Of a stretch of DNA of 64,000 nucleotides, positions 1 to 1,120 are shown piece by piece; within the stretch, counting starts at the first letter, position 1; the number at the start of each line of letters is the position of its first letter. Origin of the DNA: Candidatus Saccharimonadales bacterium (GTDB lineage Bacteria; Patescibacteriota; Saccharimonadia; Saccharimonadales; JAYRRP01); assembly GCA_041910055.1 (NCBI GenBank), contig JAYRRP010000006.1, forward strand, positions 5,057 to 69,056. Reading direction: 5' to 3'. The notes below the pieces were generated by a model that saw nothing but the letters and a program-made list of their open reading frames with translations, had not been told where the DNA came from and did not search any database. The position numbers were made by a program, and so were the translations under genes.

Positions 1-1055
1 TGCTGAGTGAGGGTATATGGGTACATAGAGCACCTGTCGGTTACAAGAACGTACTAAAAGGCGGTACGCCACAGAAACCAATCAAAGATATTGAAGTTGA
101 TGACACTAAGGCTCACTACATAATGAAAGCCTACGAAATGCGAGCAAGAGGCATATCATACGCCGTCATTGCTAAGGAACTGCGTGAGATGGGCTTTCGT
201 AGCAACATTGCTGGCAGTAAAGCACCAAGCAAACAGTTTATTGAAAGAATATTAAGCAACGAGTTTTATTGCGGTTTTATGGTTCACGCTGGCAGACGCT
301 ACCCGCACAAGTACCCGCCACTCATCAGTCGTGGCTTGTACAATCAGGTTCAGCGTGTCCGTGATGAACGTAAGCACGAGATGACAAAGTACGACAGCAA
401 AGACTTTACCCTGAAAAAGATAGTAAAGTGCGGCAAATGCGGACGTGCAGTATCGCCGTTCAAGGCTCGTAACACCGTGTATTTGCGATGTGCCAACGCA
501 AAGTGCGATAATCCGAATACAGCCGTTAGCCTTGTAATTGATAAGGTTACGGAAGATATAGGATTTATAGACGTGCCTGAGAAGTGGTTAGATAAAGTCA
601 TCACCGAGCTGCGTAACCGTCATAATGACCAGCAGCTGTACTTCACGCAAAACATTGAGCAAACCCGTGCTGAGTACGACAAACTCAAAGAAAAGATGCG
701 TAAGGTTTACTATGACTTACTTGAGGGTCGTATTACACAGACATTCCACGATGAAATTGCAACTGAGCTAGAAAAGAAACAGCAGGAGCTGAATGACCGC
801 CTAAAGTTGCTAACGAGTGATAACAAAGACTTTCAAGTTACCGCATCCTATCTGTTAGACTTGGCACAACGGGCTGAACAGCTATTCAACGAGAGCGATG
901 AGGGGCTAAGACAGAAGTTGCTGGAATACGTACTTTCAAACATTGAACTAAAGGATAAGAAGTTGTCTTATATACTAAACGACCCCTTTAGAACAGTCGT
1001 TGAAACAAAGAAAAAGAGCCTTGCGGCTCATAATTCAAATATTTGGTGCGGGTGA
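1..1055 (+). CDS. large serine recombinase, C-terminal part (5' end outside window)
   Basis: Frame is open from base 3 to the TGA at 1053-1055. It has a recombinase-domain-like region, a Cys-rich zinc ribbon (CGKCGRAV...LRCANAKC) and a long coiled-coil segment. The architecture and C-terminus align with the complete recombinase at 54602-56191. The last 12 nt overlap tRNA-Gly. Confidence 0.85.
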   Translation, partial: LSEGIWVHRAPVGYKNVLKGGTPQKPIKDIEVDDTKAHYIMKAYEMRARGISYAVIAKELREMGFRSNIAGSKAPSKQFIERILSNEFYCGFMVHAGRRYPHKYPPLISRGLYNQVQRVRDERKHEMTKYDSKDFTLKKIVKCGKCGRAVSPFKARNTVYLRCANAKCDNPNTAVSLVIDKVTEDIGFIDVPEKWLDKVITELRNRHNDQQLYFTQNIEQTRAEYDKLKEKMRKVYYDLLEGRITQTFHDEIATELEKKQQELNDRLKLLTSDNKDFQVTASYLLDLAQRAEQLFNESDEGLRQKLLEYVLSNIELKDKKLSYILNDPFRTVVETKKKSLAAHNSNIWCG

Positions 1056-1120
1056 GGGGACTCTAACCCCTGGCCTCATCCTTGGCAAGGATGCGCTCTA
1101 AACAACTGAGCTACACCCGC
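1044..1120 (-). tRNA. tRNA-Gly (anticodon GCC), CCA encoded
   Basis: Minus-strand read: GCGGGTGTAGCTCAGTTGTTTAGAGCGCATCCTTGCCAAGGATGAGGCCAGGGGTTAGAGTCCCCTCACCCGCACCA. It folds as a cloverleaf with anticodon loop TTGCCAA. Confidence 0.9.

Follow-up and report, generated by a model that had tools for sequence, protein, structure and literature searches.

A large serine recombinase gene probably split at its attachment core inside tRNA-Gly in Saccharibacteria, with a conserved tail and an antisense terminator

The window analysed here, a stretch of 64,000 nucleotides (nt) from a Candidatus Saccharimonadales bacterium (contig JAYRRP010000006.1), begins inside a gene for a large serine recombinase (LSR), and this gene ends inside a tRNA gene. 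Frame 3 of the plus strand is open from the window edge as far as a TGA at 1053-1055, giving the C-terminal 350 codons (3-1055) of a protein that matches PF07508 and PF13408 and terminates in ...ETKKKSLAAHNSNIWCG. On the minus strand an intact tRNA-Gly(GCC) gene, the presumed integration target, occupies 1044-1120 and adjoins and overlaps the 3' end of the LSR gene, the layout of a tRNA island. The overlap is 12 nt: TGG TGC GGG TGA (1044-1055), read by the recombinase as WCG and stop, is the antisense of the tRNA-Gly(GCC) 3' end ...CACCCGCACCA. An earlier note on this DNA had remarked on this coincidence, which is borne out by the frame-3 reading and by ARAGORN and Rfam (71.6 bits), and had pointed to a second LSR in the window that ends in the gene for transfer-messenger RNA (tmRNA) at an equivalent place. 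The question is why recombinase genes should run into RNA genes in this manner. We consider it likely that positions 1-1120 are the right attachment site (attR) of an integrated island whose LSR gene is split at the attachment (att) core, the arrangement including a C-terminal tail and a terminator carried in antisense.

The window-start protein has the expected parts of an LSR. PF07508 (Recombinase) matches residues 35-123 of the partial protein over its gathering score (E 4.3e-13), and the recombinase zinc ribbon PF13408 reaches 24.4 bits (E 3.8e-5), slightly below its cut-off of 25.3; the four cysteines of the ribbon are invariant in the alignment of its relatives, termed family 1 below. 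The N-terminal 148 or so codons lie upstream of the window and are supplied by two homologous loci, L029 and L002, in which the catalytic resolvase-type domain is seen (MDAKIILIARVSDIEQRK...). Residue S12 is invariant, and PF00239 is present in nearly all homologues of this LSR. A search of the PDB by sequence profile found no close solved relative. Judging from the junction sequences described below, the enzyme would recombine attP with attB through a 2-bp crossover.

A protein search with the partial LSR returned 181 homologues, from Saccharibacteria wherever the source gave a name; all but a few fragments have both PF00239 and PF07508. Almost all end in ...[IL]WCG followed by one of three continuations: a stop codon, a recognisable antisense translation of a tRNA (LRDSNSRPLPWQGSALTTELNPH...), or a conserved other peptide, WC.IVDAFQTsA.DAQ.DYKLKHL.EQF.LSG.L. 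A scan of species-representative genomes gave 79 loci, 78 of them from metagenome-assembled genomes (MAGs) of Saccharibacteria or Patescibacteria. A minus-strand tRNA 3' end was found at offset 0 from the in-frame TGG at no fewer than 56 LSR 3' ends, the targets being tRNA-Gly(GCC) in 42 cases, Asn(GTT) in six, Trp(CCA) in five and Asp(GTC) in three. Since the W encoded by this TGG is also an invariant column of the family-1 alignment, the overlap of reading frame and tRNA is not due to chance. Several target tRNAs occupy this constant position, which demonstrates that the relatives have changed target while the RNA end stayed at the same place in the protein; retargeting of family 1 among tRNA-Gly, Trp, Asn and Asp is real. 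Two proposals of the earlier note, that the att core sits at a fixed place in the 3' part of the recombinase gene and that members of the clade have moved between acceptor ends, are therefore upheld, and when the cores are mapped onto the clade alignment they fall on the invariant W column.

The conserved alternative C-terminus also occurs as an orphan. At about 20 loci it lies on the same strand as the integrated LSR, 2-10 kb upstream. Each orphan tail starts with TGGTGC (TGGCAGG in the Trp clade) and remains open in the LSR frame for 35-41 codons, at which distance the stop codon is conserved. All 27 of the tRNA-Gly-type junctions listed carry TGGTGC, the Trp type carries TGGCAGG, and one decayed copy has TGGCGC. 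To the left of the tails different genomes have unrelated DNA, in which a hairpin with A/T runs is typical; these hairpins look like displaced native tRNA terminators. Comparison of junctions places the att core of the window-start island at 1044-1049 (+), where TGGTGC is antisense to CCA, the discriminator and the final bases of the acceptor stem. As TGGTGC is the only sequence common to left and right junctions, the direct repeat bounding these islands is 6 nt long. Serine recombinases require sequence identity only at the crossover dinucleotide, so a repeat of this length fits such an enzyme. The crossover dinucleotide is predicted to be the second TG of TGGTGC.

These observations are best explained by an integrative, probably mobilisable island of about 11.5 kb with copper/metal cargo, inserted in the 3' end of tRNA-Gly(GCC) and moved by an LSR whose attP lies inside its own reading frame, with the crossover in TGGTGC. 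In the free (attP) form the reading frame would continue beyond the core for about 33 further, conserved amino acids (aa), the tail. Integration would leave the tail at the far end of the island (attL), and the integrated gene would then end in host tRNA antisense, here WCG and stop. The tRNA would at the same time be parted from its native terminator, and the island would supply a hairpin and T-run 14 nt past CCA, within the codons for KKKSLAA. An island in ssrA, the tmRNA gene, would be built alike by a distantly homologous LSR. Relatives of both enzymes have switched among tRNA-Gly, Trp, Asn, Asp, other tRNAs and tmRNA, the position of the core in the protein remaining constant.

Is the tail a part of the enzyme? 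Its consensus is IVDAFQTsAidAQeDYKLKHLaEQFqLSgnLI. An alternative is that the overlap reflects genome compaction, that the LSR truly ends in WCG, and that the tail, always untranslated, is conserved as DNA, for instance as a regulatory site or as the P' arm of attP. An LSR attP extends about 25 bp to each side of the crossover, and this must impose a DNA-level constraint on roughly the first eight codons of the tail; C-terminal extensions of any kind, read from tRNA antisense, are tolerated in integrated copies, and the tail has no confident AlphaFold2 fold. However, conservation continues for about 100 nt, far beyond an att half-site, the stop position is conserved at 35-41 codons, and relatives of the second LSR (family 2) have a different, equally conserved tail. 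Variation concentrates on third codon positions in the LSR frame only: among 28 orphan tails, pairwise differences at codon positions 1, 2 and 3 were 0.30, 0.23 and 0.50, and the pooled ratio of nonsynonymous to synonymous polymorphism (pN/pS) was 0.41 in the LSR frame versus 0.88 and 1.28 in the other two. We therefore regard the compaction explanation as unlikely. The codon pattern is good evidence that the enzyme of the non-integrated element would include the translated tail, and the tail may matter for activity or regulation. Joined LSR and tail are directly seen in tandem arrays, e.g. L012, and in protein-database entries, P0001 and others.

A further step would be to regard the split as a switch governed by integration state. 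The full-length LSR of the free element would be competent, or regulated, for attP x attB recombination, and the tail-less enzyme of the integrated element, its end dictated arbitrarily by the host sequence, would differ in activity, stability or direction. We put this forward tentatively, as an idea with somewhat less than an even chance of being correct. If it is true, a widespread clade of bacterial serine integrases senses its own integration state.

The second LSR of the window belongs to an island in ssrA. It is encoded at 54602-56191 (+), measures 529 aa in the integrated state and matches PF00239 (E 7e-16). Its C-terminus, ...GTNKKALDDSSSALMVELAGTAPASASLSS, extends 50 nt into the 3' end of the tmRNA gene at 56142-56533 (-), which was identified with Rfam model RF00023 (63.4 bits). 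ARAGORN missed this tmRNA gene, so that ARAGORN alone is unsafe for tmRNA in such genomes. Frame reading and BLASTP located the left junction at 46471-46722 (+): the core T/TGGTGGA (46471-46478) is followed by an in-frame orphan tail, HLENSAPLIFEEIRRWRNIIWDDYLEHKY..., which is 48% identical over 46 aa (BLASTP, E 1e-14) to the last residues of P0166, a tail-bearing family-2 protein. This match indicates that the ssrA island extends from about 46472 to 56148 and that its recombinase is split in the same way.

Further to the left, a sequence match revealed that the final 19 nt of ssrA recur as an orphan (46289-46307, +), with the displaced native ssrA terminator, recognised on terminator evidence, just left of it (46250-46277, -). 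This 19-bp repeat might be taken for the actual left boundary of the ssrA island, in the manner of the DsiB islands of Dehalococcoides discussed below; this was judged less likely, because the tail-bearing proteins of family 2 share only about 8-10 nt with ssrA and because the homologous tail begins at 46472. The 19-nt copy appears instead to be an older junction. The roughly 160 nt between the two junctions contain a further KK motif and an antisense terminator (46443-46463), and 46308-46470 (+) is probably a decayed remnant, with its own KK motif, of the 3' part of an older recombinase gene. An ATG-initiated open reading frame (ORF) of 152 aa (46264-46722, +) runs in one frame from the chromosomal flank through the 19-nt orphan and the remnant into the orphan tail; the ssrA-island tail could thus be translated even when integrated, or the ORF may have arisen by chance.

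Family 2 mostly ends in ...LGTNKKAL.......[ML]VEL.G.AP.S, which is antisense to the end of tmRNA. In its more remote members the frame continues into tRNAs (MVTPAGFEPAIF..., MVISPGIEPG..., WYTRQDSNLRP...), and some members of the family have the conserved alternative tail ...H[LI]EKS.PLI.EEI.RWR.LLW.DY..Y. Family-2-like enzymes with the frame offset of the M codon and with their own upstream tails were also found at tRNA-Gly(GCC) (L081, L082 and L050). The targets of family 2 are accordingly tmRNA, tRNA-Gly and other tRNAs. L081 and L082 are uncultivated viral genomes of IMG/VR (classed as viral), and the upstream tail of the former is at L081:3102; some members of the split-LSR system may be prophages, or these contigs may have been misclassified as viral.

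The earlier note had taken the two recombinases of the window for homologues and had relied on the equal distance from a shared KK[SA]L motif to the RNA end. The spacing is indeed equal within 1 nt: in both proteins KK and nine residues are followed by the CCA-antisense codon, W in one (TGG in frame) and M in the other (A/TGG, shifted by 1 nt). Homology is evident at profile level only. Pairwise BLASTP aligned just the recombinase domain (27% identity, 130 aa, E 9e-4) and gave no C-terminal match, whereas hhalign of the two family alignments returned a full-length match over 483 columns (99.1% probability, E 1.8e-18), pairing KKK-SLSAHNSNI-W with NKK-ALDDSSSAL-M so that W and M share one column. 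The C-terminal similarity is thus not spurious, and the two enzymes appear to be distant homologues.

What fixes this spacing? Antisense within the window-start LSR ORF, at 1006-1029 (-), scan, folding and covariation identified an intrinsic-terminator-like element, a GC hairpin GAGCCGCAAGGCTC with T-run TTTTTCTTTG, 14 nt past the CCA end of tRNA-Gly; the terminator scan flagged 1029-1016 (-). On the other strand the same nucleotides encode KKKSLAA. Directly after the tmRNA 3' end, antisense in the second LSR ORF (where it encodes NKKALDDSSSAL), scan and folding revealed a similar 12-pair hairpin with T-run, TTTTTTGTTTG, at 56100-56140 (-) (scan 56140-56110, fold z = -5.8). Among 21 loci the family-1 hairpin shows changes on both sides in five of six pairs, and its covariation score of 0.415, against 0.19 for shuffled alignments, was surpassed in none of 500 shuffles and lies above that of every slid register. 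The compensating stems include GAGCC/GGCTC, GACCC/GGGTC, GGCTC/GAGCC, TCCGCC/GGCGGA and GCCCCA/GGGGC.

The spacing could also be a matter of protein ancestry or function only, KK[SA]L being a C-terminal linker motif unrelated to transcription of the RNA gene. The full-length homology of the two families and the alignment of the motif by hhalign agree with this. However, the residues at the hairpin change freely (KKSLSAH, KKALSGS, ENPPEGGE, NKKAQNEP) while hairpin and T-run are kept by compensation, and the Asn/Asp clade retains hairpin and T-run without KK at this distance. The terminator scan moreover flags exactly the sites of the KK motif, and displaced native terminators stand at the left junctions. 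A purely protein-based explanation is consequently quite improbable. The data support the view that KK[SA]L is largely the antisense imprint of an intrinsic terminator of the RNA gene and not just a protein motif; of the earlier note's shared motif, the spacing and the alignment stand, and its character as a protein motif alone does not. For both families, a conserved terminator accounts for the fixed distance from KK to CCA no less well than protein homology. Integration leaves the native terminator of the RNA gene at the left junction, away from that gene, and the island would therefore bring a replacement.

The earlier note had also predicted that a second island lies directly to the left of the window. 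Locus L029, on contig CAZAAL010000004.1, matches window positions 1-786 with 100% identity, ends there, and adds 9,998 nt upstream. Outward from the window edge it carries the start of the LSR gene with the catalytic serine, a 395-aa protein without assigned function, a SpoVG-like protein, a 394-aa protein without assigned function, a 69-aa HTH_17/excisionase-like protein and a 312-aa protein; the cargo furthest out consists of a CsoR-type repressor with an operator-like palindrome (ATACCCCCTAGGGGTA), a DUF305 protein, a YncE-like propeller, a 282-aa protein and the start of a P-type ATPase. The 69-aa HTH_17 protein is a candidate directionality (excision) factor. Neither a tyrosine integrase nor a phage structural gene was found in the upstream island as represented by L029, and for this reason the element looks like an integrative mobilisable element. 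Metal/copper cargo is common to several islands with different backbones or none (L029:1-5310, L074:4777-9960, L019, L075).

A different species-level genome (L002) contains the same island, 8,275 nt at 99.94% identity to L029; there it adjoins another tRNA-Gly allele and has other neighbours. Sequence identity between the window and L002 extends to TGGTGCGGGT and is lost after it. A near-identical copy whose identity ends at the core points to recent transfer and places the island boundary at the core. That the window-start LSR is instead a dead, fixed remnant with nothing mobile upstream is very improbable: many decayed remnants do exist at tRNA-Gly (e.g. L074-L079) and no left junction has been seen for this copy, but the LSR ORF is intact, L029 and L002 contain the catalytic domain, and an 8.3-kb copy is 99.94% identical at a different tRNA-Gly allele in another genome.

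The presence of an upstream island is thus established by the LSR N-terminus, backbone and metal cargo of L029 and by the copy in L002, and its left end is predicted from synteny. The earlier note had also expected an orphan tRNA-Gly 3' fragment there, followed by an in-phase open frame. No such fragment of 9 nt or more is present in the L029 flank, and only the 6-nt TGGTGC could be expected, this being all of the displaced target 3' end at the left ends of the roughly 20 homologous islands; in the ssrA island that end is at 46472, with the older 19-nt copy at 46289. The in-phase frame past an orphan core exists in these homologous islands and is missing within the 10 kb of L029: translation onward from every TGGTGC in L029 and in L002-L005 gave no tail, in L029 because the predicted junction falls just past the end of the locus. 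In L019, L074 and L075 an attL tail comes after the homologous ATPase gene, 375-540 nt beyond the equivalent of the L029 end. On this synteny, attL is predicted about 10.4-10.5 kb upstream of window position 1, which would give an island of about 11.5 kb.

Several points weigh against an island split at its core, or against parts of that explanation. L029 stops inside the ATPase gene, so that the position of attL in this very island rests on L019, L074 and L075. Genes with joined LSR and tail can equally derive from tandem arrays, and the evidence that excision would rejoin the tail to the LSR ORF is comparative only. The posterior of the hhalign alignment is low to moderate at the C-terminus. 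In the reconstructed attP, dyad symmetry is centred at the second TG and the signal is weak (0.41); the reconstructed attB, composed of native terminator and TGGTGCGGG..., has no centre of symmetry, and its left arm is not conserved. No obvious hairpin is seen at one tRNA-Trp locus (L039). Finally, AlphaFold2 modelling of a tail-bearing family member reproduced the LSR architecture, with helices 341-388 and 394-445 between the zinc-ribbon strands (an inserted coiled coil), and gave the tail a predicted local distance difference test score (pLDDT) of about 50 and no structural hint of its function.

In the well-studied phage LSRs phiC31, Bxb1, A118 and TP901-1, attP lies outside the integrase ORF and the targets are protein-coding or intergenic. 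The enzymes described here resemble them in having catalytic and recombinase domains and a zinc ribbon with a coiled coil, and short att sites with a 2-bp crossover are expected here as in those systems.

The closest precedent is provided by the ssrA islands of Dehalococcoides (McMurdie et al. 2011, PMC3146451), in which the 3' end of the gene for DsiB, an LSR of about 540 aa, overlaps the att site; its authors speculated that the enzyme is complete only on the circular form. Both systems have the stop codon outside the island and form tandem arrays. The DsiB islands differ in their 20-bp direct repeat and crossover in the T-loop, against a core of 6-7 nt at the CCA end in Saccharibacteria, and in C-termini that were reported as divergent, whereas the tail described here is conserved and of coding type. 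DsiB is also accompanied by a small serine recombinase, DsiA, and a ParB/Mom/RecF-like integration module; a Pfam scan of ten proteins of the Saccharibacteria island found no second resolvase, ParB or Mom. The DsiB paper does not describe tRNA targets or an embedded terminator, and the likeness to DsiB drawn here is one of described features.

An attP inside the integrase gene is also known from Mx8 IntP/IntR and from the archaeal SSV-type 'suicidal' integrases (PMC6070905, PMC8371274, PMC4383910), where integration into a tRNA gene alters or splits the integrase as well. Those are tyrosine recombinases and only serine recombinase domains were detected here, so that the comparison is one of layout and not of membership. 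In SSV-type genes, moreover, the split falls within the main body of the protein, whereas the Saccharibacteria LSR loses just a short C-terminal tail. A 2021 review regarded self-disrupting (SSV-type) integrases as exclusive to archaea.

According to Islander (2015), serine integrases are not known to target tRNA genes. In the passages of two computational surveys considered here, Mageeney et al. 2020 (TIGER, PMC7192596) found tRNA or tmRNA genes to be the targets of 14 of 297 serine-integrase islands and stated that proof is needed for such use, which 'has not been reported previously', and the tycheposon preprint of Hackl et al. (10.1101/2020.12.28.424599) reported LSRs in a minority, 27 of 937, of its tRNA-gene elements. 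These passages of the two surveys give no att-site anatomy relative to the recombinase ORF. A literature search found no description of the present split-LSR system in Saccharibacteria. What is new relative to known systems is the use of tRNA targets with repeated retargeting, the core of 6-7 nt at the CCA end, the conserved coding-type tail and the antisense terminator.

Serine integrases are major tools of genome engineering, and how they choose and change their targets is a practical question. Here, homologous enzymes with a constant place of crossover have moved among at least four tRNAs and tmRNA, and their att sites can be read from genomes, which provides ready attP/attB pairs for studies of specificity. 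If our explanation is true, the clade is a natural series of retargeted serine integrases in which a core of 6-7 nt was re-aimed and the antisense terminator carried along. The split conserved tail would offer a testable case of self-regulation by integration state, a possibility raised for DsiB and otherwise known only in tyrosine enzymes (Mx8, SSV). The terminator would be a case of compact dual coding, in which an element repairs the displaced terminator of an RNA gene within its own coding sequence. Finally, metal-resistance cargo travels on these islands from one Saccharibacteria species to another, in a group for which few routes of gene transfer are known.

tRNA-Gly(GCC) and ssrA are hotspots at which islands and remnants with recombinases of different subfamilies form tandem arrays (L012, L023, L043, L048, L050, L079 and window positions 46289-46478). 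Each subfamily has its own type of tail at these hotspots: IVDAFQT..., ..EI.RW[RK].IL...Y, ISYEVKTLLL.. and AHWI.GGT.F.QVYI.

Seven mini-elements from different MAGs keep only the last 320 nt or so of the LSR gene, beside tRNA-Gly (L074:10016, L075:10016, L076:10007, L077:10001, L078:9979, L079:4997 and L006:2311, equivalent to window position ~732). All of these LSR fragments start at one identical nucleotide (ATTACACAGACATT, codon ~387, at the tip of the coiled coil), where unrelated cargo ending in AGGGGG or AGGTG adjoins them; the recurrent form of the junction is AGGGGG/ATTACACAG. An insertion of the IS200/IS605 type was considered as the cause of this breakpoint and rejected, because the palindrome resembles a CsoR operator in the cargo promoter, there is no transposase, and the upstream half of the gene is absent. 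Both attR and the attL tail are kept in these mini-elements, which might be moved in trans.

Immediately beyond the tRNA-Gly gene of the window, at 1166-2587 (-), lies a gene for a protein of the Pup-ligase family (PF03136, E 2.5e-90). It stands between tRNA-Gly and tRNA-Phe, at a location that is elsewhere a compact tRNA cluster (Gly-Phe-Cys-Leu).

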